The notes below the pieces were generated by a model, which saw only the letters and a program-made list of their open reading frames with translations, made no database searches and was not told the DNA's origin. A DNA stretch of 64,000 nucleotides from Minisyncoccota bacterium. GTDB lineage: Bacteria > Patescibacteriota > Minisyncoccia > Phycocordibacterales > UBA9973. The DNA lies in the NCBI GenBank assembly GCA_041650615.1, contig JBAZKU010000001.1, forward strand, positions 458,750 through 522,749, in the 5' to 3' direction. This document shows positions 7,293-64,000 of this stretch, in pieces (position 1 is the stretch's first letter; each line of letters starts with the position of its first letter). The position numbers and the translations under genes are program-made.

Positions 7293-7312
7293 AAAAACTA
7301 AAAATAAAAAAC

Positions 7313-7465
7313 ACTAATCTCTAAACAATCCTTTTAGGGCTAAGCCCCGAAAGTAACAAATCATTAGAGGATAGTTCCAGGAACTCGTGAAAGCACCAGA
7401 ACGTCCTATGCAAATTTATATAACCAAAGGCTGATTGCTTAGAGATTAGTGTCTTCTTTTTCAAA
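7313..7465 (+). ncRNA. Candidate structured RNA or MITE-like element (20-bp closing stem CACTAATCTCTAAACAATCC / GGCTGATTGCTTAGAGATTAGTG)
   Basis: Long-range inverted repeat enclosing ~110 nt with internal hairpins (GGGCTAAGCCC, GTTCCAGGAAC, GTGAAAGCAC), followed by a T-rich tract; no ORF. Confidence 0.35.
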
Positions 7466-7612
7466 AACAAAAGAGGTTATACCCCTTTGTAAAAACAATT
7501 ATACTATGGTTCCAAATCAAGCAATTGTTGTAAAAATGCTATAATGTGGATAGTATGTTGATAAGTGGCTTACTTATTAACACTTGGAGAAGTATAGCAT
7601 ATAATAAAACCA

Positions 7613-13811: not shown

Positions 13812-14069
13812 TTACACTATATCTCGCGGAGTTTTTTTACCCAGAATTTCTTTTAATTTTAAAAAAATTTGATCTTTTTTTAAAAAAATCTCATTTTTAT
13901 AAATAGGTTTTATATTTAAATAAACCGTATTGTTTTTTATTTTTATATCTTCGGATTTTATTTTTACTCCAATAACCTGATATAAAATATCTATAATAGA
14001 ATTTTTTTTAATTTCTTCAGAAAAAAGAATTTTGTTAAAATGTAATAGTAAATCTTTTATTTCAATCAT
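13812..14069 (-). CDS. Small protein downstream of dnaN (possible DUF721-like)
   Basis: 85-aa ORF in the position DUF721 proteins usually occupy after dnaN; weak assignment. Confidence 0.3.
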   Translation of the reverse strand: MIEIKDLLLHFNKILFSEEIKKNSIIDILYQVIGVKIKSEDIKIKNNTVYLNIKPIYKNEIFLKKDQIFLKLKEILGKKTPRDIV

Positions 14070-15163
14070 TTATTCATTGGCATTATAAGATAAGTAAAAG
14101 AATTATCAGAATTTCCTGATATTACTATGGGTTTTGAGGGTTGGTTTAGCTTTATAGAGATACTATCTGTATTTATGGACTGGAAACAATCAAGAAAATA
14201 TTTGTAATTAAAACCAAGTGAAACATCTTCTCCTTTTATGGCGGCATCTAAATATGTTTTATTTTCTCCGATATCATTATTCTGAGACGATAATTCAAAT
14301 ATTTTTTCTTTCTGTGAAATTTTTAGATTTATTTGATTAAATTTATCCGAAAAGATATTTGAAATTTTGAGTGCATTTAATAGATCTTGTTTTAACACCA
14401 CGGCTTCAACCTTAAATTCTTTCGGAATAATTTGACGATAATCAGGGAAAACTCCATCTATAATCCTTGATGTTAAGTAAATATTATTAGAAGAAAAAGA
14501 AATTTGGTTTTTATTAAAACATACTTTTATAACATCCTGTATTTCCCCAAAAATTCTCAATATCTCGGGTATGTTCTTAAAGGGAATAAGTATTCCGGGA
14601 ATTTCTTCAGTATTTTTAATTTTAATTTTTTTCTCTGCTAATCTAAAAGAATCTGTTGAAACAAACACTAAATTATTTTCGTCAGAAAATATATAAACAC
14701 TTGATATTTCGGGTTTTATATCAGATGGAGACGAACTGTAATATACGGACTTTATGCCTTCTATTAATTTTTTTGATTCTATTTCAAAAGTTTCTCCTTC
14801 TACTGCAGGGATAGTGGGAAAATCATCATAAGTCTGGCCTTTTAGTTTTATTCTATTCTTTTTTGTTTTAATTAATAAATTTCCATCTTCACTCTCTAGG
14901 CGTACATTCTCATTTTGAAAAACATTAGAGAAAACACCAGCTAAAACTGCTCCAGAGATGGCAACAATTCCTTCTTTCTCAATTTTTGCAGGAATTTCAA
15001 TCTCTACCCCAATACTTAAATTAGTAGCGCGAAGTTTTAGAGATTTACCTTCTGCTATAAAAAGGATTGAATTCAAAATAGGGAGTGTTAAATTTTTCCC
15101 TGTGATTTTTTCCACTTGTAAAATTCCATTTTTAATTTGTTCAATTCCACATTCTAGTTTCAT
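14066..15163 (-). CDS. dnaN: DNA polymerase III beta sliding clamp
   Basis: 365 aa, three-domain clamp-like sequence, immediately downstream of dnaA. Confidence 0.8.
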   Translation of the reverse strand: MKLECGIEQIKNGILQVEKITGKNLTLPILNSILFIAEGKSLKLRATNLSIGVEIEIPAKIEKEGIVAISGAVLAGVFSNVFQNENVRLESEDGNLLIKTKKNRIKLKGQTYDDFPTIPAVEGETFEIESKKLIEGIKSVYYSSSPSDIKPEISSVYIFSDENNLVFVSTDSFRLAEKKIKIKNTEEIPGILIPFKNIPEILRIFGEIQDVIKVCFNKNQISFSSNNIYLTSRIIDGVFPDYRQIIPKEFKVEAVVLKQDLLNALKISNIFSDKFNQINLKISQKEKIFELSSQNNDIGENKTYLDAAIKGEDVSLGFNYKYFLDCFQSINTDSISIKLNQPSKPIVISGNSDNSFTYLIMPMNK

Positions 15164-16743: not shown

Positions 16744-16838
16744 AGGCTATAGATTATACTACACAAATTTTTAATACAATTTTAAAAAACTTATTAACCA
16801 TGTTGATAAACTGTTAATAATTTTTTATAACTTGGTTT

Positions 16839-16867
16839 TTGACTTAAGGCAAGTATTTTAGTATACT
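16839..16867 (+). promoter_or_regulatory. Sigma70-like promoter of rpmH (TTGACT-17nt-TATACT); ATG lies ~7 nt after the -10
   Basis: Consensus -35/-10 with a 17-nt spacer, then ctttaacATG, implying a leaderless rpmH mRNA. Confidence 0.5.
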
Positions 16868-16874
16868 CTTTAAC

Positions 16875-17015
16875 ATGTCACAAACATATCAACCCAAAAA
16901 GAGAAAAAGAGCAAAAGCTCACGGATTTTTAGTCAGGGCTAAAAGTAAAACAGGTCAAAAGGTGCTTTTAAGAAGAAGGAGAAAAGGACGTGCTAAACTC
17001 ACTGTTTCTTCATAG
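16875..17015 (+). CDS. rpmH: 50S ribosomal protein L34
   Basis: Hand translation [46 protein letters not shown] matches the L34 family; absent from the ORF track (too short). Confidence 0.9.
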
Positions 17016-17035
17016 TTTAAGTCTATATATAATTA

Positions 17036-17365
17036 ATGCTTCCTAAAAAAAATAGAGTTGATAGAAAAGGAGTAAACCTTATTTTTAGAAAGGGACGTTT
17101 TGTTACTTCTCCTAGTTTTGCTTTTAAATTTACCAAAATCAATACCGATAAAAATAAAAAACAGATTAGTTTTATTGCCCCAAAGAATATAGCTAAATTA
17201 GCTGTTAAAAGAAATTTACTAAGGAGAAGAGGATATTCTGCCCTAAAAAAATATATAGGTCAGTTCCCCTATGGAATTTTAGGGGTTTTTGTTTTTAAAA
17301 AATATCAAGATAATATTCTAACAATTGAAAATGAAATTAAAGACATTCTTAATAAACTTAATTAA
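17036..17365 (+). CDS. rnpA: RNase P protein component
   Basis: Basic 109-aa protein with RNRLKRR-like motif (KRNLLRRR) right after rpmH. Confidence 0.85.
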
Positions 17366-34648: not shown

Positions 34649-35515
34649 CTATCCTTTTTTGTTAATATCTATGGCTTTGGCAAGATTTAACCAATCTTCC
34701 AACGTCAGTTCTTCTGCCCTTTTATTCCCAAGTATCCTGGCGGAAGCTATTCTTCCGTATTTTGAGAGAGTTTTTAAATTTGAAGAGAGTTTTTTTCTCT
34801 TATGCGCAAAACCAGCGTGAATTATTTCCCAAAATTTCTCTTCATTTATTTTATTTTTAATAAAATTTTTTCTGGAAATATTTTTAATAGCAATGACCAC
34901 TGAATTCACATTAGGAACGGGTGAAAAGTACCGTGCCGGTACCTTCATAATCGTTTCAGGATTTCCATATGCTTTTACCGAGATTGAAAGAATGCTTTCT
35001 TTTTTATCTCTAGCCATAATTCTTTTGGCGACTTCGTTTTGAACCATCAATATCATTCTTTCCGGCTGATTTTTCTCCGTCAGAAATTTTTTTAATATTG
35101 CGCCAGTGATATTGTAAGGTATGTTGGCAATAATTTTATATTCAAAATCTGGGTGTTTCTTTCGATTTTGAGCTTCCCGAGGGGCCCACTCGGTAATCCG
35201 AGAAGGGCGCAGGGACGAAAAATCGGAAGAAACATCCAGATTTAAGATATCGTCATTTATTAGGATCAATTTCTCATCTTTAATTTCCTTAGAAAATTTT
35301 TCTTGCAAAAATTTAAAAAGTTCATAGTCTTTCTCTATGGCAATTACACAGCCAGCTCTTTCTAAAAGTTTTTCTGTCAGTGCGCCTTTTCCAGGACCGA
35401 TTTCTAAAATAATATCTTCTTCAGAGATTTCCCCAGCTTCCACTATTTTTTTTAGCGCCAAAGCAGACTTTAAAAAATTTTGCCCTAATGATTTTTTTGC
35501 CTTGTATATTTTCAT
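34649..35515 (-). CDS. rsmA: 16S rRNA (adenine1518/1519-N6)-dimethyltransferase
   Basis: LGQNFL motif and SAM-binding EIGPGKGALT; carries an in-frame GC-rich repeat insert at 35170-35223. Confidence 0.9.
   Translation of the reverse strand: MKIYKAKKSLGQNFLKSALALKKIVEAGEISEEDIILEIGPGKGALTEKLLERAGCVIAIEKDYELFKFLQEKFSKEIKDEKLILINDDILNLDVSSDFSSLRPSRITEWAPREAQNRKKHPDFEYKIIANIPYNITGAILKKFLTEKNQPERMILMVQNEVAKRIMARDKKESILSISVKAYGNPETIMKVPARYFSPVPNVNSVVIAIKNISRKNFIKNKINEEKFWEIIHAGFAHKRKKLSSNLKTLSKYGRIASARILGNKRAEELTLEDWLNLAKAIDINKKG
35170..35223 (-). repeat. Family C GC-rich palindromic element inserted in frame in rsmA
   Basis: ~54 nt nearly identical (reverse complement) to the intergenic copy at 51432-51481; encodes SLRPSRITEWAPREAQNR. 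Confidence 0.75.
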
Positions 35516-37584
35516 ATATAAATTGTTTTTATTCCGCCCTTTTCCCTTTCTTTTTCTATAATATCACTGGGAATATCAGAAATGAATTCTGATGGAGTAT
35601 TTATTTGGCGCGAACCGAAAATAGTGCGGAAATTTACAAACGATAAAAATAATTTTTCTTTGGCGCGAGTAAGCGCGACATAAAAAAGTCTACGTTCTTC
35701 TTCCTTATCTTCGGCATTTTTTATTTCACCATCTCTTTGGTGCGGAAAAAGTCCGTCTTCTAATCCTGTGACAAAAACATATTTGAACTCAAGTCCTTTT
35801 GAAGCATGCACGGTCATTAATTTTACGGCATTTTTATTTTCTTTTTTTTCTTGATTAAACATCATTCCGTCTTGATCCGAAGCCAAAGAAGCATCTTCTA
35901 AAAGTTTTTCTATTCCTGTCCCATCCTTTAAATCATTATATTTTAAGGCTAAAGTAGCCAATTCCTTTATATTTTCCAACCTTTCCATGTCTTCTTCGGT
36001 GCCGGAAAGAAGTTCTTTCTCAATGTCGGATTTTTTTATCGTAAATCTTATAACATCAGACGCTTTTTCAGTTACTATTTTTTCTTTTATTTCTTCCAAT
36101 GTTTTATAGAAATTATCAACTTTTGTTTTTACTTTTATTGGTAATGTTTCTTTTTCGCCGGCGAAAATTTTAGCTAGAGTTACTTTTCCTATTCCCCTTG
36201 CAGGGAAGTTTATTATTCTTTTTATATCAGACAAACTTTCTCTGTTAAGTGCAGCCCGAAGATATGCGAGAGTGTCTTTTATTTCTTTTCTTTCAAAAAA
36301 TTTAACACCCAAAACTTGATATGGAATATTATATCGGAGCATTGCTTCTTCCAACGCGCGCGATTGAAAATTCGCGCGGTATAAAACTGCGACTTCGGAC
36401 ATAGATGCGGGTGTGCTTTGAGGGGGTGTCTCAGATGGCGAAAGGCGAGGTATTCTCGAGCGAACCCTTGGTAGGAGCGACGGCGACGGACAGAGAAAAT
36501 TTTCAGCAGAAAATTTTCGTGGTGAGTCCGAGAATACCTCACCTGAAGCCCTGTCCATAATCTCTAAAACTTTTGTCGCGACAAAATCCGCTTCGTCACT
36601 TTCATCCAATGCTTCGTAAAAACCGATTTTCTCACCGATTTTATTTTTGGTGAATAAATTTTTATCCGGCCTGTATTTATTTTTCTTTATTATTTCGTTG
36701 GCCGCCTCTAAGATGTTTTGAGTGGACCTGTAATTTTCTTCAAGCAAAATTATTTTCGCACTAGGGTAATCTTTCTCAAAACTCAAAATATTTTTTAAAT
36801 TGGCTCCGCGCCAAGAATAAATATTTTGATCGGCATCCCCTACCACGCAGATATTTCTATTTTTTTCAGAAAGCAAGCGCGACATTAAATATTGTACTTC
36901 ATTTGTATCTTGATATTCGTCAATGTGGATGTAATCCCATTTTTCTTGATAAATTTTTCTAATTTGTTCATTTTCTTTTAACAACTTGGTTGCTTTTAAA
37001 AGCAAATCGTCAAAATCCAAAGAATTTTCTTTGACTTTTTTCTTTTCATATAAATTCCAAACTTGCGCCACTATCCCCCCAAAAAAATCATGCGTTCTTT
37101 CTTTATAATCCGCCAGAGGAGTAAATTTCCCCTTTTCCCGGCTGATTATGTTGCCTATTTTCTTAGGATCGTATTGTTTCGGGTCCAACCCCAGCTCCTT
37201 TAATGATTCCTTTATAAGGGTTGTTGAATCTGATTCATCTAAAATAGTGAAATGTCTGGTTAATCCTAAAATTCTTGCATTTTCCTTTATTATATAAACT
37301 CCCAAGGAATGAAAAGTACTAATAAAAGGTATAGTATTTTGGCCTTTGGCATTTTCCTTAATTTCCGAGATAATTCGTTCACGCATTTCTTTAGCTGCTT
37401 TATTAGTAAAAGTGACAGCTAGAATTTTCTCCGGAGCGATCCCATTTTTGATTAAATTTAGTATTCTATGCGTTATTGTCTTTGTTTTCCCCGCGCCTGC
37501 TCCGGCAACAATAAGAAGCGGTCCGTCTATATGGATTGCTGCCTCTCTTTGTTTACTGTTGAGTCCCCTTAAATGTTCGTCCAT
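35512..37584 (-). CDS. uvrD: ATP-dependent DNA helicase UvrD/PcrA
   Basis: Walker A AGAGAGKTKTITHRI and SF1 helicase motifs; carries an in-frame ~95-nt repeat element. Confidence 0.9.
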   Translation of the reverse strand: MDEHLRGLNSKQREAAIHIDGPLLIVAGAGAGKTKTITHRILNLIKNGIAPEKILAVTFTNKAAKEMRERIISEIKENAKGQNTIPFISTFHSLGVYIIKENARILGLTRHFTILDESDSTTLIKESLKELGLDPKQYDPKKIGNIISREKGKFTPLADYKERTHDFFGGIVAQVWNLYEKKKVKENSLDFDDLLLKATKLLKENEQIRKIYQEKWDYIHIDEYQDTNEVQYLMSRLLSEKNRNICVVGDADQNIYSWRGANLKNILSFEKDYPSAKIILLEENYRSTQNILEAANEIIKKNKYRPDKNLFTKNKIGEKIGFYEALDESDEADFVATKVLEIMDRASGEVFSDSPRKFSAENFLCPSPSLLPRVRSRIPRLSPSETPPQSTPASMSEVAVLYRANFQSRALEEAMLRYNIPYQVLGVKFFERKEIKDTLAYLRAALNRESLSDIKRIINFPARGIGKVTLAKIFAGEKETLPIKVKTKVDNFYKTLEEIKEKIVTEKASDVIRFTIKKSDIEKELLSGTEEDMERLENIKELATLALKYNDLKDGTGIEKLLEDASLASDQDGMMFNQEKKENKNAVKLMTVHASKGLEFKYVFVTGLEDGLFPHQRDGEIKNAEDKEEERRLFYVALTRAKEKLFLSFVNFRTIFGSRQINTPSEFISDIPSDIIEKEREKGGIKTIYI
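36447..36540 (+). repeat. Family B MITE-like element inserted in frame (antisense) in uvrD
   Basis: 12-nt terminal inverted repeats GAGGTATTCTCG/CGAGAATACCTC; ~65-nt core near-identical to the intergenic copy at 43664-43766. Confidence 0.75.
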
Positions 37585-39670: not shown

Positions 39671-39911
39671 TCTCTGCTTGTTTCATGTAAAACATCTATA
39701 ATTATGTTTCACGTGAAACTTTTTACTTAATTTTTATGTCTTTTATTATAATATCCTTATTTTACAACGCATTTTTAACAAAAATACCTCTTAAAGACAA
39801 CATTTTTCTATGTCCTTTATAAACATTACCAACATAGTTATCCACAGTTTTTTACAAAACCCTTATAAAATGAAGATAAAATAAAGAAAGTATAAAGGAC
39901 AGGAAAATTTG

Positions 39912-39990: not shown

Positions 39991-40142
39991 ATGTAAAAAG
40001 ACCACCAAATATAACCACAATTTAAACAATGTAAAAAGACCACCAAATATAACCACAATTTAAACAATGTAATAAAGACCGTTAAATATAACCACAATTT
40101 AAACAATGTAAAAAGACCCTGAATATAATCGCAATTTTAAAT
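39991..40142. repeat. Tandem direct repeat, 4 copies of a ~38-bp unit (ATGTAAAAAGACCACCAAATATAACCACAATTTAAACA)
   Basis: Copies 1 and 2 identical, copies 3 and 4 degenerate; no spacers, so not CRISPR; sits between two tRNA genes. Confidence 0.85.
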
Positions 40143-41851: not shown

Positions 41852-42778
41852 ATGAGAATTGGAATTTTTGATTCGGGGGTGGGAGGGCTGATTATTGCCA
41901 AAGCGATAAGAAAAATGATGTCGGAATATGATTATGTATATTTAGGAGACACCAAAAGAGTGCCTTATGGTAATCGCTCATATGAGGCAGTTTTTGAATT
42001 CACTAAAGAAGCGATGAATTATCTATTTAAGAAAGAAAATTGCGCCATTGTCATTATTGCTTGTAATACAGCCTCTGCTAGAGCTCTCCGAAGAATTCAG
42101 CGGGAATATTTGGTTGATTACAATGCTACTCGCAGAGTAATGGGGGAGTCTGTTGAAAGAAAAATATTGGGAGTTTTGATTCCAACGGCGGAAGAATGCA
42201 CTAAATATAAAAGAGTGGGGATATTGGGAACTGCGGGAACAATAAATTCGAATACTTTTCCGAAGGAGATAAAAAAAGTAAATTCACAAAAGAAGAAAAG
42301 TTTGCTGCTTTTTCACGGCTCGCACTCGAACTTGGATGCGGTTAACGAGAGTAATCTTGCGTATGCCGAAAAAAGCACAAACTTTTCTTCTTTTACAACA
42401 GTTTTCCAAAATCCTGCGCCGATGCTTGTGCCTTTGATTGAAGAAGGGGAGAGAGTTTTAGCCAAAGAATTTCTTAAAAAATATTTAAAGCCATTTTTAA
42501 ATAAAAAACTGGATGCAGTAGCGCTTGGTTGCACTCATTATCCGTTTTATAAAAGTGAAATCAAAAAAATTCTTGGTCCAAAAGTAAAAATTATTTCTCA
42601 AGACGAAATTATTCCTAAAAAACTAAAAGAATATTTTGCGAGACATCCGGAGGTCACAAAAAAATTAACCCAAAACAGTAAAGCTCAAATACTTGTCACA
42701 GACTTAACTCCCAATATCCTGAAACTTTCAAAAAAATGGTTTGGAGGGAAGATAAAACCAAAACTGATTAGCCTATAA
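41852..42778 (+). CDS. murI: Glutamate racemase
   Basis: GIFDSGVGGL and ACNTAS catalytic Cys motifs; contains a ~35-aa insertion relative to typical MurI. Confidence 0.85.
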   Translation: MRIGIFDSGVGGLIIAKAIRKMMSEYDYVYLGDTKRVPYGNRSYEAVFEFTKEAMNYLFKKENCAIVIIACNTASARALRRIQREYLVDYNATRRVMGESVERKILGVLIPTAEECTKYKRVGILGTAGTINSNTFPKEIKKVNSQKKKSLLLFHGSHSNLDAVNESNLAYAEKSTNFSSFTTVFQNPAPMLVPLIEEGERVLAKEFLKKYLKPFLNKKLDAVALGCTHYPFYKSEIKKILGPKVKIISQDEIIPKKLKEYFARHPEVTKKLTQNSKAQILVTDLTPNILKLSKKWFGGKIKPKLISL

Positions 42779-43641: not shown

Positions 43642-43663
43642 ACATTATTATGATAACATAAAG

Positions 43664-43766
43664 TCGTGAAACTAAGATTTTTTCACCACGAAAATTTTCT
43701 GCTGAAAATTTTCTCTGTCCGTCGCCGTCGCTCCTCCCAAGGGTTCAAAAATCTTAGTTTCACGAC
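43664..43766 (-). repeat. Family B MITE-like element, intergenic copy, with 20-nt terminal inverted repeats GTCGTGAAACTAAGATTTTT / AAAAATCTTAGTTTCACGAC
   Basis: Perfect TIRs flank a GC-rich core (GAACCCTTGGGAGGAGCGACGGCGACGGACAGAGAAAATTTTCAGCAGAAAATTTTCGTGGTGA) shared with the uvrD insert. Confidence 0.8.
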
Positions 43767-43767
43767 T

Positions 43768-44682
43768 TTATTTGTGACTGTGAAACTTTTTATGTACATC
43801 TAGTAATTGCCTGTCAGTAACGTGAGTATAAATTTGAGTTGTGGCGATATTGGAATGTCCAAGCATCATTTGAACAGAACGGATGTCTGCGCCGTTTTGC
43901 AATAAATCCGTAGCGAAACAATGCCTAATTATGTGCGGGGTAACTTTTTTTGAAATACCGGCCTTAATCGCATATTGTTTCACAATTCTTTCAATAGACC
44001 TCTTGGTTAATGGACCAGTTTCTTTTTGAGAAGTTTCCTTTCCCACTTTTACAAAGAGCGCATCATCCATATCTTTTCGCAATGCCAGGTATTTTTTAAT
44101 GGCATCTTTCGCTTCGGGAGATATAAAAACCACTCTGATTTTTCCCCCCTTGCCACGAATGGAAAATTGTTCAGATCCGAGATCAATATCATTAGTTAAA
44201 CTACAGAGCTCAGAAACACGAAGACCGGTGGAAAAAAGGAGTTCCAATATAGCTTTATCTCGCAATGATTTTATGTCATTTCCTTTAGGTGCATCAAGCA
44301 GGCGGCGAAGTTCTGTTTGGGTGATTAAATCAAGAGATCTTTCCGTGATTTTAGCCAATTCTATTCTTTCAGCTGGCATTGATTTTATTCCTTGTCGTGC
44401 AAGATATTTCAGAAAGGCTCTTATGGCTATCAGATAATAATTTTGGGTTTTTTTAGACAAAGTTTCGCCTGTAGCTTTATTATTACCGGTGGATTGGCGA
44501 TTAAGCCAAAGACGAAATTCCCGCACGGTGTTGTCGTTTATATTTGTTGGATTATCATTTTTTACGAAATCTAAAAAGCGAGTAAGGTAATGGTCATAAT
44601 TTCTAACCGTATTAAGCGCTCGGCCTCTTTCTATTTCTACATATTCCAAAAATTGAGTTTTAAGCTGTTTGAGGGATGCCAT
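43768..44682 (-). CDS. xerC: Tyrosine site-specific recombinase XerC/XerD family
   Basis: R..HxxR..Y catalytic region HIIRHCFATDLL...LGHSNIATTQIYTHV. Confidence 0.9.
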   Translation of the reverse strand: MASLKQLKTQFLEYVEIERGRALNTVRNYDHYLTRFLDFVKNDNPTNINDNTVREFRLWLNRQSTGNNKATGETLSKKTQNYYLIAIRAFLKYLARQGIKSMPAERIELAKITERSLDLITQTELRRLLDAPKGNDIKSLRDKAILELLFSTGLRVSELCSLTNDIDLGSEQFSIRGKGGKIRVVFISPEAKDAIKKYLALRKDMDDALFVKVGKETSQKETGPLTKRSIERIVKQYAIKAGISKKVTPHIIRHCFATDLLQNGADIRSVQMMLGHSNIATTQIYTHVTDRQLLDVHKKFHSHK

Positions 44683-44720
44683 AATCTAATTTTACCATGT
44701 CGCACAATATTTTAGAAGGA

Positions 44721-44812
44721 AAATCGTTGCCTATGAAGAATTTAAGAAACGTGTGGGTTCCCTGTCCTTTTGACTCCGAGGGCGCAATTTCGAAATTCTT
44801 CATAGGCAACGA
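44721..44812 (+). repeat. Family F structured element in the rpsO 5' region (21-bp closing stem ATCGTTGCCTATGAAGAATTT / AAATTCTTCATAGGCAACGAT around a GC core GTGGGTTCCCTGTCCTTTTGACTCCGAGGGCG)
   Basis: Perfect long inverted repeat; core is near-identical to the copy at 63621-63713. Confidence 0.7.
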
Positions 44813-44855
44813 TAAAACCTTGCAATTTCAACGACTTTATGCTAATGTGAAGTAC

Positions 44856-45119
44856 ATGTTAACCACAAAGAAAAAGCAAACAATTATAAAGAAAAATCAA
44901 ATTCATGAGAAAGATACTGGCTCTTCTGAGGTTCAGGTAGCTGTTTTATCCACTCAAATAGAAGAATTGGCAAAACATTTAAAAAAACACAAAAAAGACA
45001 ACAGTTCTCGCAGGGGGCTTATTAAAATGGTAGCTGATAGGCGTACTCATTTGAAGTATTTAGAACGCAAAAACAAGCCTCGTTATAATGCACTCATGAA
45101 AAAGATGAATCTCGTCTAG
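44856..45119 (+). CDS. rpsO: 30S ribosomal protein S15
   Basis: 87 aa, GSSEVQVAVLSTQIEELAKHLKKHKKDNSSRRGL matches the S15 family; the upstream part of the 44697 ORF is a spurious extension. Confidence 0.9.
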   Translation: MLTTKKKQTIIKKNQIHEKDTGSSEVQVAVLSTQIEELAKHLKKHKKDNSSRRGLIKMVADRRTHLKYLERKNKPRYNALMKKMNLV

Positions 45120-45139
45120 TCTTTTGCTATAATCTATTT

Positions 45140-45768: not shown

Positions 45769-47880
45769 ATGAAGAAAAAAGAGTATTCAGTTGAAATCGG
45801 CGGCAAGACATTGACTGCTATTTTCTCGGATTTAACAGAGCAAGCACATGGGTCCGTGATTTTAAAATACGGTGAAACAATTGTGTTGGCAACAGCTTGT
45901 ATGTCCAAAGACAGACAAGAAGGTTTGGGATTTTTTAATTTGACAGTAGATTATTTGGAAAAATTTTATGCTACCGGAAAAATTTTAGGGTCGCGCTTTA
46001 TGCACAGAGAAGGGAAACCATCAGAAGATGCAATTCTAGCTTGCCGAGTGATTGACAGAACTCTCCGTCCGCTTTTTAACCAATCTATCCGTCATGCTGT
46101 GCAAGTTATCACCACGGTCATTTCTTTAGACCAAGACGACCCGACAATTTTGGCCATCAACGCTGCTTCTCTTGCTTTGGCGGTATCTAATATTCCTTGG
46201 GCAGGACCAATCGGCGCAGTGCGTATTGGAAAATACGACGATGATAATTTGAAAATAAACCCCGCGCAGGGATTGCGACAAGATGATACAAAATATAAAT
46301 TTGACTTAACTATTTGCGGGAAAGATGGCAACTTGAATATGATTGAAGCCTCGGCTCATCAGGCCAAGGAAGAAGAATTGGAGGAAGCATTTAAAGTAGC
46401 AAGTGAGGAAATAACCAAATTAGAAAATTTTCAGAAAAAAATAGTGGCTGAAATAGGTATTCCAAAAAGGGTAATAGAAGAAGAAAAAATATCAGATGAA
46501 TCAGTAAAATTATTTAATGAAAATATATTACCGAAAATGAAAAGCGCCCTATTTGCCGGAGCCGGAAAAAAGAAAATAGACGAACTACATAATGTTTGGA
46601 ATAAAATGGTGGCAGAAAAATACCCGGACAGGGATGATTTCACTTTAGAGGATAATCTTTTTGATAACACGGAAAATAATATGCTACACGAAAAGGCTAT
46701 AAAAGAGAACAAGCGCGCCGATGGCCGGGCGATGGATGAAATTCGGGACCTTTATGTTCAAGCTGGAGGAATTTCTTCAATTTTGCATGGTAGCGGAATT
46801 TTTTATCGCGGAGGAACGCATGTGCTTTCTATCCTTACTCTCGCTGGCCCCGAAGAAAAACTTTTAGTTGACGGCATGGAAACAAAAGAAGAAAAAAGAT
46901 TTATGCATCATTATAATTTCCCGCCTTATTCCAGTGGGGAAGTTGGTCGTATAGGCACTACTAATCGCAGGGAAATCGGTCACGGGGCATTGGCTGAAAA
47001 AGCTTTAGCGATGGTTTTGCCGAGCGTGGAAGATTTTCCTTACACTATGCGCCTGGTTTCCGAATCAATGGCATCAAATGGTTCTACTTCTCAAGCTTCA
47101 ATCTGTGCATCCTCTATTGCCCTAATGGATGGAGGGGTTCCGATTAAAGCGCCGGTTGCTGGCATTGCTATGGGGCTGATGTATAAGAATAACAACGAGT
47201 ATAAAATTTTAACCGATATTCAGGGACCGGAAGACCATCATGGTGATATGGATTTTAAAGTTGCAGGGACAAAAGAAGGAATTACAGCCATTCAACTTGA
47301 TGTAAAAGTGGAAGGAGTGCCGATAAAAATATTAGCTGAAGCGATGGAACAATCCAAGAAAGCAAGAATCGCAATTTTGGATAAAATTGAAAAAGAAATT
47401 CCTACACCAAGAGCTCATATTTCTCCTAATGCACCAAAGATTCTGATTATCAGAATTAAGCAAGACCAAATCGGTATGGTTATCGGAAGTGGAGGAAAAA
47501 CTATTAAAGACATAAAAGATAAAACAGGGGCGGAAATAACTATTGAAGATGATGGCACAGTGTATTTAACTGGAAAAGATGATATGGCGGAAAAAGCTAA
47601 AGCTATTATAGAAGAAATGACTCATGAATTTAAAGTTGGAGAAGTGTTGAAAGGGGAAGTGGTTAAATTGGCGGATTTTGGAGTGTTTGTCAGATTAAAT
47701 CCTTTTACCGACGGGATGGTGCATATTTCCGAAATGGCTCCGTTTCGCGTAGAACGAGTTAGCGATATAATAAGAGAAGGGACAATTGTGCCAGTGAAGG
47801 TTATAAAGATTGATGAGGAAAGAGGGAAAATCAGCTTATCAATAAAAGAAGCAGATAAGAATTTTTTTAAGAAGCCTTAA
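45769..47880 (+). CDS. pnp: Polyribonucleotide nucleotidyltransferase (PNPase)
   Basis: Two RNase PH domains, KH and S1 C-terminal domains. Confidence 0.95.
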   Translation: MKKKEYSVEIGGKTLTAIFSDLTEQAHGSVILKYGETIVLATACMSKDRQEGLGFFNLTVDYLEKFYATGKILGSRFMHREGKPSEDAILACRVIDRTLRPLFNQSIRHAVQVITTVISLDQDDPTILAINAASLALAVSNIPWAGPIGAVRIGKYDDDNLKINPAQGLRQDDTKYKFDLTICGKDGNLNMIEASAHQAKEEELEEAFKVASEEITKLENFQKKIVAEIGIPKRVIEEEKISDESVKLFNENILPKMKSALFAGAGKKKIDELHNVWNKMVAEKYPDRDDFTLEDNLFDNTENNMLHEKAIKENKRADGRAMDEIRDLYVQAGGISSILHGSGIFYRGGTHVLSILTLAGPEEKLLVDGMETKEEKRFMHHYNFPPYSSGEVGRIGTTNRREIGHGALAEKALAMVLPSVEDFPYTMRLVSESMASNGSTSQASICASSIALMDGGVPIKAPVAGIAMGLMYKNNNEYKILTDIQGPEDHHGDMDFKVAGTKEGITAIQLDVKVEGVPIKILAEAMEQSKKARIAILDKIEKEIPTPRAHISPNAPKILIIRIKQDQIGMVIGSGGKTIKDIKDKTGAEITIEDDGTVYLTGKDDMAEKAKAIIEEMTHEFKVGEVLKGEVVKLADFGVFVRLNPFTDGMVHISEMAPFRVERVSDIIREGTIVPVKVIKIDEERGKISLSIKEADKNFFKKP

Positions 47881-47918
47881 TGTTATTTAAAAACTCTTTC
47901 TCGGTATATCTTTTTCTA

Positions 47919-47985
47919 GGGTACGGATTTTTTGAAGCTTAAAAAATCCTGAAGTTCTCGGCTCGTCAGCCTCGAAACCCCCTAA
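47919..47985 (+). repeat. Family A REP-like element (copy 1), 39 nt downstream of the pnp stop
   Basis: GGTACGGATTTTTTGAAGCTTAAAAAATCCTGAAGTTCTCGGCTCGTCAGCCTCGAAACCCC; contains a 9-bp hairpin GGATTTTTT/AAAAAATCC. Confidence 0.8.
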
Positions 47986-48021
47986 AAAAGATACACCTTC
48001 AACGAGTTTTTAAAATCAATT

Positions 48022-48894
48022 ATGGAAAACGAAAATAAATTTAAAAATAAAAATGTGGAAACCTATACCAGAGATATGGTAAAGGCTATTGAAAATGATA
48101 AAGGAGGATTGATAAAAAAAATAATTCACGAAGAAGAAGAGCATGAGGCTCAAAAGAAAAATTTATCTCCCGGCTCAAAGAAAAACAGGATATTTATGTT
48201 TATAAGCGTAGCACTTATATTTATAGCTTTAGCTGCTTTGTTTTTTTTGATATTTTTAAATAAAAAAATCGGCACCGTTTCAATTGTGCCACAAATGACT
48301 TCAATTATTTTTACCGATAAAAGTGATTTTAAAGCAATTGACGGACTTAATAAAGATAAAATAGAACAGACTGTTTTAAATCAGGTTAATGATACTGGAA
48401 CGAAGATAGGGGGAATAGATGGCATCTATCTTACGGAAAATAAAGAAACCGTAGGTTTTAAAGAATTTATAAAAATTATAAAAGGCAGTTTGATTGCTGA
48501 CCAGACGAGCTTAATTAGCGACAATTTTCTATTAGGAGCGTATGTAAGCGGCATAAAACAGACATCGCCCTCAGCAGGAGATTTTTTCATCTTGCTCAAT
48601 GTTCGTTCTTTCTCCGATATATTCCCAGTAATGCAAGCTTGGGAGAACAAAATGTTATATGACTTGGGTGGATTTTTCGGAATAGAAATAACTCCCAATA
48701 CCAATTATTTATTTACGAAAAATTTTGAGGATGGCATAGTGGCAAACAAAAATGCGCGAATTCTTTATGATAATAATGGGGGTATTGTTTTGATGTATAT
48801 ATTCGCCGACGATAATTTCATTATCATTTCCAATTCCGAATTAGCTACCCAGGAAGTAATCCTTCGACTGAATTCCAGTAAGATAAAAAAATAA
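48022..48894 (+). CDS. Hypothetical membrane-anchored protein
   Basis: 290 aa with one TM helix after a charged N-terminus. Confidence 0.5.
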   Translation: MENENKFKNKNVETYTRDMVKAIENDKGGLIKKIIHEEEEHEAQKKNLSPGSKKNRIFMFISVALIFIALAALFFLIFLNKKIGTVSIVPQMTSIIFTDKSDFKAIDGLNKDKIEQTVLNQVNDTGTKIGGIDGIYLTENKETVGFKEFIKIIKGSLIADQTSLISDNFLLGAYVSGIKQTSPSAGDFFILLNVRSFSDIFPVMQAWENKMLYDLGGFFGIEITPNTNYLFTKNFEDGIVANKNARILYDNNGGIVLMYIFADDNFIIISNSELATQEVILRLNSSKIKK

Positions 48895-49321: not shown

Positions 49322-49366
49322 TTAAAAAATAATATAAAATTAATGACAAAAGTAAAAAATTTTGTC

Positions 49367-49434
49367 GGTACGGATTTTTTGAAGCTTAAAAAATCCTGAA
49401 ATTGGCTCGCCGTCGCTCGCCAAACCCCTTAAAA
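49367..49434 (+). repeat. Family A REP-like element (copy 2), 46 nt downstream of the stop
   Basis: Near-identical to copies 1, 3 and 4 (GGTACGGATTTTTTGAAGCTTAAAAAATCCTGAAATTGGCTCGCCGTCGCTCGCCAAACCCC). Confidence 0.8.
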
Positions 49435-49466
49435 TCTTTTCTTTTGCCATTAATTTTTTAATAATC

Positions 49467-51008
49467 ATGAGTTTTGCAAAAGTTTATTCAGCACAAGTAA
49501 ACCTCCTTTCCGGTCAAATCGTAACCATAGAGGTTGATTTATCGCGTGGGTTGCACACTTTTAACGTGGTAGGACTTCCGGATAATGCCGTAAATGAATC
49601 AAAAGACAGAGTAAGTTCGGCTATAAAAAATTCCGGTTTTAAATCTCCCAAAGCCAAGAACCAAAAAATAATCGTCTCCCTTTCACCGGCCGACTTGAAA
49701 AAAGAAGGGCCGTTTTTTGATCTGGCTATTGCCCTCGCCTATATGCTGGCGTCGGAGGATTTAAAATTTGATTCTGAGAAGAAGATTTTTCTTGGGGAAC
49801 TGGGTTTAGACGGAACGCTGCGACGTATCAGGGGAGCGTTGCCCCTCGTTCAAGAAGCCAAGCGAGCCGGATATGAAGAAATCTTTTTGCCGAAAGAAAA
49901 TGCGGTTGAGGCGGCATTAGTGGAAGGGGTAAAAATTTTTGGCGCAAGCAGTTTAAAGGAAGTGGTGGAACATATTAATGAAGAAAAAAACAAGGAAAAT
50001 AAAAAAATAAAAATTCAACCGAAAACAGAAGTAAATTTTAAAAAAGAAAGAAAAAATTCCGACTTTTCTGATATTAGAGGACAAGAAGGCGCGAAAAGAG
50101 GATTGGAAATAGCGGCTGCCGGCGGACACAATATTGCTATGTACGGTCCTCCTGGTACGGGGAAAACAATGTTGGCGAGAGCCTTCTCTCAATTATTGCC
50201 GGACTTAGGGTTGGAAGAAGTTTTAGAGATCACCGGAATACACTCTGTTGCTGGAGTAACGCGAGGGGAATTAATTTCCACTCCGCCGTTTCGCTCTCCG
50301 CATCACACTTCTTCTTATGTCTCAATTATTGGCGGAGGAACTTATCCGAAGCCTGGGGAAGTGACCTTGGCACACAGAGGCGTTTTATTTTTAGATGAAT
50401 TCCCGGAATTTGAAAAAAGAGTAATTGAATCTCTACGACAACCATTGGAAGATAATGTTGTTTCAATTTCTAGAGCCAAAGGAACAGCTTCTTTCCCATC
50501 AAATTTTATTTTAGTGGCGGCAATGAATCCTTGCCCATGCGGGAATACCGGTTCAAAACAAAAAGTTTGTATTTGTAGGCCGTCTGATTTGGATAGATAT
50601 AAAAGAAAATTGTCGGGGCCGATAATGGATCGTATTGATTTGTGGGTTTCTGTCGGTAATGTTGATTATAAAAAGTTGGGGGAGGAGGGAAATGGGGAGA
50701 AAAGCGAAAAAATAAAATACAGAGTGACAAAAGCGCGGGAAATTCAAAAGAAAAGATTTGAAAAATTTGGTAGAAAAATACAAACAAATAGCGAAATGAA
50801 TGTGAAAGATTTATCCGGAATGATAAAACTGAAAGAAGAAGTAAGAAATCTACTGGATGATAGCGCCGAACGTTTGGCCCTCTCCGCTCGTGCTTATCAT
50901 CGGGTTATCAAAATCGCCCGCACTATTGCTGACCTGGAAAATTCAGAGGAAATTAACTCAAATCATATCTTAGAGGCTATACAATACAGACCGAAAGTGA
51001 ATAGTTAA
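49467..51008 (+). CDS. comM: Mg-chelatase-like AAA+ ATPase YifB/ComM
   Basis: N-terminal Lon-like domain, AAA+ Walker A GPPGTGKTMLA, C-terminal Mg_chelatase_C. Confidence 0.9.
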   Translation: MSFAKVYSAQVNLLSGQIVTIEVDLSRGLHTFNVVGLPDNAVNESKDRVSSAIKNSGFKSPKAKNQKIIVSLSPADLKKEGPFFDLAIALAYMLASEDLKFDSEKKIFLGELGLDGTLRRIRGALPLVQEAKRAGYEEIFLPKENAVEAALVEGVKIFGASSLKEVVEHINEEKNKENKKIKIQPKTEVNFKKERKNSDFSDIRGQEGAKRGLEIAAAGGHNIAMYGPPGTGKTMLARAFSQLLPDLGLEEVLEITGIHSVAGVTRGELISTPPFRSPHHTSSYVSIIGGGTYPKPGEVTLAHRGVLFLDEFPEFEKRVIESLRQPLEDNVVSISRAKGTASFPSNFILVAAMNPCPCGNTGSKQKVCICRPSDLDRYKRKLSGPIMDRIDLWVSVGNVDYKKLGEEGNGEKSEKIKYRVTKAREIQKKRFEKFGRKIQTNSEMNVKDLSGMIKLKEEVRNLLDDSAERLALSARAYHRVIKIARTIADLENSEEINSNHILEAIQYRPKVNS

Positions 51009-51032
51009 AAAGCAAAGAACAATATTTTTGCC

Positions 51033-51100
51033 GGTACGGATTTTTTGAAGCTTAAAAAATCCTGAAATTGGCTCGCCGTCGCTCGCCAAACCCCTTAAAA
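51033..51100 (+). repeat. Family A REP-like element (copy 3), 25 nt downstream of the comM stop
   Basis: Same sequence as copy 2. Confidence 0.8.
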
Positions 51101-51140
51101 ACATTGTTTTTTGCTTTTTAGGTTATCCACAGGTGGGTTG

Positions 51141-51407: not shown

Positions 51408-51431
51408 ATTTCGCTCCGTTTCTTCAAATTT

Positions 51432-51481
51432 TTCGTCCCTGCGCCCTTCTCGGAGTACCGAGTGGGACCCTCGGGAAGCTC
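51432..51481 (+). repeat. Family C GC-rich palindromic element, intergenic copy
   Basis: TTCGTCCCTGCGCCCTTCTCGGAGTACCGAGTGGGACCCTCGGGAAGCTC; matches the rsmA in-gene copy. Confidence 0.75.
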
Positions 51482-51511
51482 AAAATTTAAAGAAACTTCG
51501 CTCAGATAAAA

Positions 51512-52409: not shown

Positions 52410-52603
52410 ATTTTTAAAGGTTATTTTTATAATGCTTTCGACCGTTTGCTTATATAAATACTATCCATACATTATATATCAAGGGTTTTTTAAGGCAAGC
52501 TCCCACACTTTCTTCTCTGAAGCGCTAAAAAGCGTATTGTTATCAATATCAGGGAAGATAGTGTGGGGGCAAGTGTGTCTAAAATAGAAAAAGAATAATT
52601 TTT

Positions 52604-52669
52604 AAAGGGGTTTGGCGAGCGACGGCGAGCCAATTTCAGGAAATTTTAAGCTTAAAAATTTCCGTACCG
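52604..52669 (-). repeat. Family A REP-like element (copy 4, reverse orientation), 28 nt downstream of the rny stop on the minus strand
   Basis: Reverse complement matches copies 1-3, so it is sense to the upstream minus-strand gene. Confidence 0.8.
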
Positions 52670-52696
52670 ACTAAAAATTGATTCTTTTTCTATTTT

Positions 52697-62448: not shown

Positions 62449-63609
62449 TTATTCCTCCTTCACTTCCACTTTTTCGCCGTCGGTGGAGGCGACTTCTTTG
62501 CCGTCGCCTTTGATGTCTATTCTCCAGCCAGTGAGCTTGGCAGCCAGGCGCACATTTTGTCCACCTTTGCCGATAGCTAGAGAAAGCTGGTCATCAGCGA
62601 CTTCTATAATAGCTTTATGTTCTTTTTCATCTATTTCTATGGAAAGGACTTTAGCCGGAGAAAGAGAATTGGAAACAAATTGTTTTGGGTCTTCGGACCA
62701 AGGAATAATATCTATCTTTTCACCCAAAAGTTCTTGAGTAATGGTATTTACCCGAGTGCCTTTTTGTCCGACACATGAACCAACCGGGTCAATATGTTCA
62801 TCATTTGAATGCACGGCTATTTTTGAACGAGCGCCCGCTTCTCGAGCCACCGATTTTATTTCTACAATTCCATTTTCCACTTCCGGCGCTTCAATAGCAA
62901 AAAGTTTTTCTATAAATTTAGGATGAGTACGAGAAAGACGAAGATTGATGCCTCTGACTGTGTCTTCCACTGAATATAAATAAGCTCGCACGCGCTGGCC
63001 TCTTTGGAAAAATTCTCCCGGAATTTGCTCTTCCGCAGGCAGAATTCCAGTGGCGCGGTTAAAATCAACATAAACATTTCCTCTTTCTATTTTCTGCACG
63101 ATGCCTGAGACTATTTCTCCTTCTTTTGTTCCATATTCATCTATAATAGATGTTCGTTCCGCTTCTCGAATTCTCTGAATAATAACTTGTTTGGCGGTCT
63201 GGGCAGCAATACGTCCATAATCTTCCTTGGCTTCAAGCGGGAAAACAACTTCATCGTTCAATTCCACATCTTTTTTTATTTTTTTTGCGTCCTCCAGCAT
63301 TATATGATGCTCTCCATTGAAGCGAACACGCTCATCGCCTTCATCTTTCACCGAATATTCCTCGTCTGTTTCATTTTCTTCTCCTATTTTTGCGATAGTA
63401 TCATCCACCACTATTTTTATTTGAAAAAAATCCGTTTTGCCGGTTTCCAAATCAAACTTTGCTCGGATGATTTGTCCTTTTTTACCATAATCTTTTTTAT
63501 AAGCGGCGGCCATAGCTTGCTCTATGGCGTCTAATATTTTTTCTTTTGGAATTTTCTTCTCCTCCTCTAATTGTTCCAAGGCTGATTTGAATGTTTTTAT
63601 ATCTAACAT
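62449..63609 (-). CDS. nusA: Transcription termination/antitermination factor NusA
   Basis: N-terminal domain, S1 and two KH domains. Confidence 0.9.
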   Translation of the reverse strand: MLDIKTFKSALEQLEEEKKIPKEKILDAIEQAMAAAYKKDYGKKGQIIRAKFDLETGKTDFFQIKIVVDDTIAKIGEENETDEEYSVKDEGDERVRFNGEHHIMLEDAKKIKKDVELNDEVVFPLEAKEDYGRIAAQTAKQVIIQRIREAERTSIIDEYGTKEGEIVSGIVQKIERGNVYVDFNRATGILPAEEQIPGEFFQRGQRVRAYLYSVEDTVRGINLRLSRTHPKFIEKLFAIEAPEVENGIVEIKSVAREAGARSKIAVHSNDEHIDPVGSCVGQKGTRVNTITQELLGEKIDIIPWSEDPKQFVSNSLSPAKVLSIEIDEKEHKAIIEVADDQLSLAIGKGGQNVRLAAKLTGWRIDIKGDGKEVASTDGEKVEVKEE

Positions 63610-63620
63610 AATGATTTAAA

Positions 63621-63713
63621 ATTATGAAAATTAAAAAATTTAAGGCGTCGTGGGTTCCCTGTCCTGTTGACTCCGAGGGCGAAGGCGCAAAAATTTTTTG
63701 AATTTTTATAATT
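63621..63713 (+). repeat. Family F structured element upstream of nusA (antisense to it), with imperfect ~21-bp flanking stem
   Basis: Core GTGGGTTCCCTGTCCTGTTGACTCCGAGGGCG near-identical to the rpsO-leader copy; flanked by ATTATGAAAATTAAAAAATTT / AAAATTTTTTGAATTTTTATAAT. Confidence 0.7.
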
Positions 63714-64000
63714 TATATTAAATTTTTAAATTAAAAAGCCCTGTTTCGACAGGACTTGTACAATTCATAGAGTATCACAAGCTATATTAAAATGCAAGGA
63801 CTTTAGAAAAAGTAATAAAAATGTTGGAATTAGAAAAACAAGAAAGGTTAGTCCATAATTATTGGCATTTGTTTAAAGATTATAAGAAGGCTAATAATTT
63901 AGTTGGAGAAGATATAGTTTTTTAAAAATAAATTTAGAAGCTTTGCTAGATCTTTTCCCGCGGTGATAAAAACAAAGTCTGAGTTTTTTTTATTTGTTTA

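Follow-up and report, generated by a model that had tools for sequence, protein, structure and literature searches.

The palindromic element upstream of rpsO (the gene of ribosomal protein S15) in the window analysed here, a 64,000-nt stretch of a Minisyncoccota bacterium (contig JBAZKU010000001.1), is a copy of a dispersed non-coding palindromic repeat, termed family F, which is carried by Nomurabacteria-type bacteria of the Candidate Phyla Radiation (CPR). A second copy lies upstream of nusA in the same window. The initial annotation had taken the element for a regulatory RNA of the rpsO and nusA leaders or, alternatively, for a MITE (miniature inverted-repeat transposable element). Very probably the two window elements are family members without a gene-specific role for either rpsO or nusA. 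On balance we favour a selfish palindromic repeat resembling the Rickettsia palindromic elements (RPEs) and MITEs and filtered by its orientation, rather than an S15/NusA autoregulatory leader; the particular mechanism, selfish spread plus an orientation filter, we give an even chance. The sampled DNA covered 8-15 kb around each copy (loci labelled L0xx/L1xx), 1.2 Mb of loci in total.

Two window copies of a dispersed family

Comparison of the two window copies revealed a 32-nt GC-rich core, GTGGGTTCCCTGTCCT(T/G)TTGACTCCGAGGGCG, differing by one mismatch and without any match in 100 dinucleotide-preserving shuffles of the window, so the reported two-copy repeat with a conserved core is real. 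The strands were also read correctly, with both cores and rpsO on the plus strand and nusA on the minus strand. The closing stem of copy 1 is indeed perfect (21/21 bp), and that of copy 2 (63619-63638 with 63695-63714) is imperfect as described, with two mismatches (A.G and G.T) in 20 bp. The ends given for copy 1 (44721-44812) differ by 1-2 nt from the stem-defined span (Table 1), and copy 2 does lie upstream of nusA, with its edge 9 nt from the ATG (63607-63609) rather than about 12 nt. Covariance model R1 matched copy 1 at 44729-44806 with 73.1 bits (E = 5e-16), and the covariance model match to copy 2 (63628-63703) scored 92.6 bits. The predicted fold of copy 1 (106-nt region) has an energy of -43.1 kcal/mol and a z-score of -6.8. 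Copy 1 is located between the divergent promoters of a xerC-like gene and rpsO, and the gene following rpsO encodes an NYN domain according to Pfam.

In one genome per species, exact matches to the pattern numbered 42 cores at 39 loci, and more than 115 further metagenome loci came from a slightly degenerate pattern, whereas no copy was found in viral contigs scanned with the core pattern. Contigs with copies stem from groundwater or lake samples, such as those of Rifle, Hainich and Lac Pavin. Removal of duplicates left at least 159 distinct copies, which clustering of the flanks assigned to about 61 genomic sites. The named carriers are nearly all metagenome-assembled genomes (MAGs) of 'Candidatus Nomurabacteria'/Paceibacterota (Parcubacteria group, CPR), with up to 6-7 copies per MAG. 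The neighbours of the copies are unrelated and include gatC/gatA, dnaX, a scpB-like gene, gap, map, rpmE and others. The initial annotation had expected only two copies for a cis-regulator; the numbers above, the 42 copies inside open reading frames (ORFs) and the lack of any link to translation genes contradict that expectation.

The suggested search of Rfam returned no family for both window copies and a typical copy, on either strand and at gathering as well as permissive thresholds, giving nothing except noise of the miRNA-precursor type from long hairpins. At the gathering threshold the whole window yielded tRNAs only, and a permissive scan of 44600-44900 yielded only miRNA-type hairpin matches far below threshold. 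No match to family F was obtained with the S15 leader models of Rfam or with its covariance models for hammerhead, twister, pistol, hatchet and hepatitis delta virus (HDV)-like ribozymes. Hand inspection of both strands for hammerhead, twister, pistol and HDV core motifs revealed no CUGANGA/GAAA or comparable signature. Searches of the literature by sequence and by topic returned no prior description of the family.

The initial annotation placed copy 1 in the 5' untranslated region (UTR) of rpsO. Inspection of this region revealed a putative rpsO promoter (Table 1), with a TGn motif at 44840-44842 and 7 nt between the -10 box and the ATG at 44856. The pattern TTGCA(A/T), 17 nt ending in TG(C/T), TAAGAT/TAATGT/TATATA, 6/7 nt and ATG is kept in four of four relatives, including L016, L154 and L118. 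Copy 1 ends at 44813, 5' of the -35 box starting at 44820. The genes of the window mostly show TGnTATAAT ending 6-8 nt before the ATG, without a Shine-Dalgarno sequence (e.g. 45126-45139, 2210-2230 and 7598-7612), a pattern which implies that mRNAs of the host organism would be predominantly leaderless; the rpsO mRNA is probably leaderless or nearly so. Because a conserved putative promoter sits between the element and the ATG, and because TGnTATAAT-N6-7-ATG recurs window-wide, copy 1 would lie upstream of the promoter and outside the transcribed rpsO leader, not in the 5' UTR.

L016 is syntenic with the window (xth-xerC-rpsO-NYN-pnp) and its 78-nt xerC|rpsO spacer is without the element; the spacer of L154 is also empty, and that of L118 is occupied by another palindromic family, one arm of which includes the rpsO -35 hexamer. 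The conservation upstream of rpsO expected in close relatives was thus not found. Downstream of rpsO, the rpsO|NYN spacer holds family F in L016, L149, L154, L118, L052 and L143; the window spacer is only 20 nt long.

Two minor observations concern the same intergenic region. An ATG at 44697 opens a frame which passes through copy 1 and continues into rpsO (44697-45119; 140 versus 87 codons), resembling the translated inserts at other family F sites. Given the conserved promoter at the canonical start, this extended frame is probably fortuitous. In addition, a motif of 13-15 nt, GTCGCACAATATT(TT), is kept beside the xerC start in five relatives; relative to xerC it points one way in the window, L118 and L154 and the other way in L016 and L149. 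It may be a dif-like site for a recombinase, or a promoter segment that can invert.

The site upstream of nusA is filled in the window and in L137 (NusA 89% identical) and empty in L067 (84% identical). The well-folding strand of copy 2 is antisense to nusA, which is the typical orientation of the family, and its place ahead of a start codon is usual for the family as well; copy 1, sense to rpsO, falls into the minority class between divergent genes (7 of at least 159). Since the preceding transcript already has an ordinary terminator on the nusA strand (63736-63757), copy 2 is not needed to end it. A cis-regulatory RNA common to the rpsO and nusA leaders is therefore contradicted on both counts that the initial annotation had named, the scattering of copies without association to translation genes and the lack of conservation upstream of rpsO in relatives.

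Architecture, strand polarity and insertion sites

Alignment of the copies revealed a unit of about 85-100 nt whose conserved part exceeds the 32-nt core, with the consensus ..AAAATTTTAAG-AGTCGT-GGGTYCCCTGYC-loop-GNCTCCGAGGG-CGAAGGCTC-AGAAATTTT.. and a near-invariant, asymmetric, GC-rich centre, GGGTYCCCTGYC-loop-GNCTCCGAGGGCG. Helix P2, of 5 bp (GAGUC/GGCUC) and usually with a U.G wobble, covaries to GCGUC/GGCGC, GCGUC/GACGC and GAGCC/GGCUC, and a shifted AAAC..GUG/CGC.A.GUUU variant also occurs. The inner AT-rich stem (..AAAATTTT..) is semi-conserved, its 10-14 bp being grouped in a few classes. The outer stem of 10-15 bp is site-specific in sequence at nearly every site, yet self-complementary. 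The closing stem has a median length of 20 bp and is perfect in 40 of 150 copies. When 116 copies were aligned with the covariance model, 343 double-change cells were counted in the outer stem and P2, compared with 95 after shuffling and 36-129 with slid partners.

The core CCCU/AGGG helix never varies and so offers no covariation. Two other pairings were rejected: a small GUC/GAC core helix, the middle pair of which is unpaired in 50 of 114 sequences, and the alternative helix GAGUC/GACUC between the P2 5' strand and the core (from the minimum free energy fold), for which the P2 variants have no matching core changes. A terminator scan found none at copy 1 and, near copy 2, only the separate hairpin at 63736-63757. 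Past the stem, T makes up a mean fraction of 0.48 on the core strand and of 0.36 on its complement. An intrinsic terminator role was rejected, as no U-tract follows the stem and an ordinary terminator already precedes copy 2. The conserved part contains no convincing -35/-10 pair of an internal promoter; a weak minus-strand promoter prediction takes an arm of copy 1 as the -35 box for xerC.

A pronounced strand polarity was found. Outer-stem mismatches on the core strand are G.T in 72 cases versus A.C in 24, a bias independent of host gene direction, and one P2 pair is most often U.G, equivalent to C.A if read on the opposite strand. In 136 of 150 copies the predicted fold of the core strand is the more stable one, the mean difference being 6.1 kcal/mol, and the well-folding strand of both window copies is the plus strand. 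Between co-directional genes the core strand is antisense in 62 copies versus sense in 11, and inside ORFs in 39 versus 3; counted by site cluster, 50 are antisense and 5 sense (55 scorable, about 90%). By our own reading of the sequence, the consensus has one stop-free frame in either orientation, so stop codons alone cannot explain the bias within ORFs. In the window, gene strands alternate every few kb and each copy of family F and of families G and D1 (described below) follows the local genes. Therefore, the polarity tracks transcription and not replication, and a replication-strand cause is unlikely; the GC skew of the window merely tracks the coding strand. The core is flipped between orthologous copies at about 10 site clusters, as would be expected from recombination between the arms.

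The copies within ORFs, 26% of the total, are all read through. Their hosts include RsmH (6 copies), the CCA-adding enzyme (5), LeuRS (3), an FAD oxidase, LigA, MnmA, UvrC, PheT and a class II aminoacyl-tRNA synthetase (named genes: rsmH, cca, leuS, ligA, mnmA and uvrC), confirmed by Pfam except for LeuRS. An example of the peptide encoded across such copies is ..AFALGDKRTGNPRR.., and the core is kept at all codon positions. The cca gene of the window is empty where five other organisms hold a family F copy, the insert comprising about 28 residues including both arms. Among these five orthologous copies the outer arms differ, each being matched by its own partner arm, which indicates either compensatory evolution over a long time or templated repair at the site, or else repeated hot-spot insertion of different sublineages.

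Several orthologues of the host genes carry unrelated inserts of 30-40 residues (L016 44-1108 in Cca, L054 in UvrC and L046 in Cca). The insert in L016 Cca sits exactly where five other organisms have a family F copy, so that several element families may have insertion hot spots in common.

Intergenic copies fill the whole spacer, with the core mostly 29-40 nt from the upstream stop and mostly 36-47 nt from the downstream ATG. In three cleanly aligned filled/empty pairs the empty site is without both arms, and the whole palindrome has been inserted; any target-site duplication at the cleanest junction, L049 versus L147, is no longer than 1 nt. An origin of the arms as inverted target duplications, or a landing of the element in a pre-existing hairpin, was rejected for most sites, since the empty sites of the three pairs and of cca are without arms. 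In the light of the comparison of L145 (7916) with L024 and of the L118 spacer, some outward growth of the arms into host sequence would still be conceivable. In some sublineages, arms of about 24 nt are common to unrelated sites (window 63652, the nusA copy, and L023 1922, the gatC|gatA copy). Therefore, arms can travel with the core. Tandem copies 111-146 nt apart, or two copies in one gene (mnmA), were seen at L017 3101-3322, L077 7791-7977 and L069 4194-4782. The arms of the L077 pair are 98% identical, the only sign of a recent local duplication.

Nature of the family

In its behaviour family F is closest to RPEs, followed by the repetitive extragenic palindromes (REPs), the hairpin-forming REP doublets (REPINs) and repeats of the Correia and enterobacterial repetitive intergenic consensus (ERIC) type. 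RPEs insert in frame into Rickettsia housekeeping genes, and no transposase is known for them (PMC10969869). Like family F, they are palindromes of about 100-150 bp in the reduced, AT-rich genome of a host-dependent bacterium, with several families per genome. They too are found both between genes and, unusually often, in frame within housekeeping genes, where they are translated; the corresponding figure here is 42 of at least 159. The four other in-ORF palindromes of the window (ksgA, murI, uvrD and polA) extend this likeness, which is one of functional kind and not of homology, as the host phyla are unrelated and no sequence relationship is expected. Most of the length of an RPE can be aligned between copies, whereas in family F conservation is confined to the core, P2 and the inner stem, and each site has its own outer arms. 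The antisense polarity with respect to host genes, which is strong in family F, is to our knowledge not described for RPEs.

REPs, REPINs and bacterial interspersed mosaic elements (BIMEs) are short, GC-containing, dispersed imperfect palindromes which form strand-asymmetric hairpins, produce no target duplication and can have an effect on mRNA stability or termination. By definition REPs lie outside genes, whereas 26% of the family F copies among the matches listed are intragenic. Moreover, the stem is conserved in REP/REPIN, and in family F it is the loop and core that are conserved and the stem that varies. REP/REPIN go with REP-associated tyrosine transposases (RAYTs); no RAYT turned up here, where no search aimed at it was made. 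The Correia elements, also called Neisseria miniature insertion sequences (NEMIS), and ERIC repeats are, like family F, non-autonomous, multi-copy, hairpin-forming when transcribed and located just upstream of genes, and they can supply promoter elements or RNase III sites. Unlike family F, these elements are bounded by terminal inverted repeats that are conserved and by target-site duplications, which in Correia are TA. A Correia element can become inverted where it lies (PMC10969869). The flips of the family F core at orthologous sites resemble this inversion. What sets family F apart from the RPE, REP/REPIN and Correia/ERIC repeats is the conserved centre, the lack of a target-site duplication, the frequent intragenic location and the strong antisense polarity. 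Yeast mitochondrial GC clusters are short GC-rich palindromes in a very AT-rich genome, mostly intergenic and also in frame in a coding gene; they differ from family F in belonging to a eukaryotic organelle, in their size of about 30-60 bp and in being without long AT-rich closing stems. We know of no established mechanism for their mobilisation and of no antisense polarity among them.

In the mechanism that we propose, family F would be a selfish element in the manner of RPEs and MITEs, and its active or selected form would be the folded single strand, RNA or single-stranded DNA (ssDNA), of the core-bearing strand. Insertions placing the strongly structured strand into host mRNA would mostly be purged by selection. 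Surviving copies would either take up the space from a stop codon to the -10 box that follows or become translated loops of about 28-33 residues. The complementarity of the arms would be maintained through compensatory change or template-switch repair.

Several points weigh against this reading. No presence/absence difference was seen between nearly identical strains and no near-identical copies were seen at different sites, so any recent mobility would be hypothetical. No transposase or other mobilising protein was identified in the loci, in which no systematic search was made. The core is kept at every codon position in ORFs, and the pairing of the arms persists across saturated divergence at orthologous sites. 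Such conservation resembles purifying selection per locus, which favours a function for the host, more than the decay of selfish DNA; it could be mimicked by concerted evolution or by repeated hot-spot insertion. The invariance of the core is partly a product of the sampling, as copies were gathered by core-based patterns. Furthermore, this reading offers no origin for the site-specific outer arms, and an RNA as the acting strand would be deduced only from wobble-pair statistics and predicted folding energies.

The same conservation argues for a structural RNA exapted by the host on the antisense strand, either as a small-RNA gene or as a barrier to antisense or divergent transcription, which we consider rather unlikely. 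In the former case the variable 20-bp stem would serve as a stalk for RNase III-type processing, from which an RNA of about 50-60 nt with the conserved core would be set free. RNAs processed by RNase III have this layout, in which the flanks vary but remain complementary around a conserved core. In the latter case the element would act as a barrier or attenuator in an AT-rich genome whose promoters are barely more than TGnTATAAT and in which antisense and divergent transcription would be expected often. Selection of the structure on the strand antisense to host genes, the core kept at all codon positions and the covarying arms at orthologous sites agree with such an RNA. So does the position of intergenic copies, which abut the downstream -10 box (core to ATG 36-47 nt), where a symmetric -10 box would start divergent transcription. 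However, the element has no recognisable promoter for the core strand and no terminator-type U-tract (T fraction 0.48 after the stem, scan negative), and many orthologous sites in relatives are without copies. About 10% of the sites have the opposite orientation, the core flips in about 10 clusters, and it is not easy to see what would be gained by a barrier inside leuS or ligA. A new small module in the core, catalytic or recognised by a protein as RNA or ssDNA (a self-cleaving ribozyme or the hairpin of an HUH-type transposase), could instead drive propagation; we regard this as improbable. It would account for the roughly 30 near-invariant nt, including the predicted unpaired GGGUY, CUCCG and CGAAG, for the conserved U.G wobble in P2, and for the strand-specific folding. 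The occurrence of the same GGGUYCCC...CUCCGAG..GGGCG in a different local helix context in family G also fits, as does insertion without target-site duplication, which is a feature of single-strand transposition. All of this support is circumstantial, however; no Rfam ribozyme family matched, the invariant core offers no covariation to define a fold, and no HUH transposase turned up, no systematic transposase search having been made.

A classical cut-and-paste MITE, namely a deletion derivative of a DDE-transposase insertion sequence with conserved terminal inverted repeats and target-site duplications, is less probable again. The MITE alternative of the initial annotation was right in that the element is a small, multi-copy, palindromic, non-coding repeat with presence/absence polymorphism, and the arms of about 24 nt common to unrelated sites in some sublineages would suit it. 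It does not extend to a textbook MITE, as the outer arms are unlike between most copies (only the inner AT-rich part being semi-conserved) and no target-site duplication above 1 nt was found at the junctions. The centre and not the termini is the most conserved part, the reverse of a MITE, and no full-length parent with a transposase was seen in the 1.2 Mb of loci, in which no systematic search was made. We see hardly any chance for a cis-regulatory leader common to rpsO and nusA, with its core bound by S15, NusA or another translation factor. Its appeal lies in the strong structure of the element, in the location of both copies within 45 nt upstream of genes of the translation and transcription machinery, and in the nusA copy kept in one close relative, L137. 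The S15 operator of rpsO and the nusA-infB leaders have only this neighbourhood in common with family F: they are single-copy, gene-specific and located in the transcribed 5' UTR, overlapping the ribosome-binding site. Family F is multi-copy, with at least 159 copies at about 61 sites beside or within unrelated genes, lies upstream of the conserved -35 box at rpsO, where L016 and L154 are without it, and is antisense to nusA, where L067 is without it; neither an Rfam S15 leader nor any other Rfam family matched.

None of the classes compared (RPE, REP/REPIN and MITE) unites, as family F does, an invariant asymmetric core with arms that are site-specific but self-complementary, insertion without target-site duplication and an antisense orientation in about 90% of cases. 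With its palindromes in frame within essential genes, the window gives RPEs a parallel in a second lineage of host-dependent bacteria, one unrelated to Rickettsia, and palindrome insertions would account for some unexplained inserts in CPR proteins. For annotation, the element should not be filed as a riboswitch-like leader of rpsO or nusA, and the same caution applies to the other palindromes of the window. There is a small chance that families F and G together are a CPR-specific, multi-copy gene for a small structured RNA of about 50-60 nt, or else a module of a new kind, acting as ribozyme or protein handle. If this were true, the RNA would come from the strand antisense to host genes and be freed from the variable 20-bp processing stem. 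Per-locus selection would then explain why the core is near-invariant in ORFs, why arms covary at orthologous sites and why the wobble pairs are strand-specific.

Other palindromic families and features of the window

Table 1. Coordinates of family F copies, other palindromic elements and genes in the window
Feature	Position	Strand	Remarks
Family F copy 1, whole palindromic element	44723..44813	+	Subfamily with inner helix AAACGTGT/CGCAATTT
Copy 1 outer stem, 5' arm (ATCGTTGCCTATGAAGAATTT)	44723..44743	+	Complementary to 44793-44813 at all 21 positions
Copy 1 near-invariant GC-rich core	44753..44784	+	28-nt centre identical or nearly so in at least 159 copies
Copy 1 outer stem, 3' arm	44793..44813	+	Pairs 21/21 bp with 44723-44743
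Family F copy 2, whole element	63619..63714	+	Subfamily with helix P2 GCGTC/GGCGC
Copy 2 core	63650..63681	+	1 mismatch relative to copy 1
Putative rpsO promoter	44820..44848	+	-35 TTGCAA 44820-44825; 17-nt spacer ending TGC; -10 TAATGT 44843-44848
rpsO (ribosomal protein S15)	44856..45119	+	Pfam PF00312, 1.6e-30
Xer-type tyrosine recombinase gene, divergent from rpsO	43768..44682	-	Pfam PF00589/PF02899; start 40 nt from copy 1
nusA	62449..63609	-	Pfam NusA_N, KH_5, S1
Ordinary intrinsic terminator upstream of copy 2 on nusA strand	63736..63757	-	Terminator scan
GTCGCACAATATT(TT) motif	44699-44713		Also L016 3301-3313 (-), L118 10688-10700 (-), L149 8721-8733 (+) and L154 spacer
Family G copy	51420..51495	-	Intergenic, antisense to flanking + genes; covariance model R1 23.7 bits, E = 0.02; nhmmer
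Family G copy 2	35156..35231	+	Inside ksgA/rsmA ORF (34649-35515, -), in-frame read-through; Pfam RrnaAD
Family D1 copies	47875-48025, 49330-49463, 51006-51120 (+), 52581-52696 (-)		27 copies across loci
Family I2 copies	43658-43771 (+); 36443-36544 (-)		Loop motif CGCCGTCGCTC common with D1
Long inverted repeats with GC-rich centres	42288-42394; 3646-3745; 7302-7461		In murI (41852-42778); in polA (2231-4672); intergenic
dnaA	15400-16743	-	
dnaN-like gene	14066-15163	-	
rnpA-like gene	17036-17365	+	

Besides family F, the 64-kb window of this CPR bacterium holds several palindromic families of about 100 nt, and at least five palindromes lie in frame in essential genes (ksgA, murI, uvrD and polA, plus the frame into rpsO). 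The sister family G has GGGTCCC...ACTCCGAGAAGGGCGCAG in common with family F. The core of family D1 consists of GGTACGG, a hairpin with a GAAGCTT loop and CCTGAAATTGGCTCGCCGTCGCTCGCCAAACCCC; its internal hairpins covary and its outer stems are site-specific. Unlike family F, D1 is sense-oriented and located at gene 3' ends, including between convergent gene pairs (8/27), which suggests an element of the 3'-UTR or terminator type. One family I2 copy (43658-43771) occupies the whole spacer between xerC and xth, where L016 has only 1 nt, and the other (36443-36544) lies in frame within a UvrD-type helicase gene (35512-37584). The inverted repeats in murI and polA are read through in frame, and all three long inverted repeats are singletons in the sampled DNA.

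Two further observations were made outside the palindromes. The dnaA gene diverges from an rnpA/yidC cluster over a 292-nt AT-rich gap (16744-17035), a candidate oriC, in which DnaA-box matches are not clustered. Between tRNA genes at 39997-40118 there are three tandem repeats of 38/39 nt (AAAGACCACCAAATATAACCACAATTTAAACAATGTAA...), each containing ATAACCACA, which is close to a DnaA box; a perfect TTATCCACA occurs at 39838.

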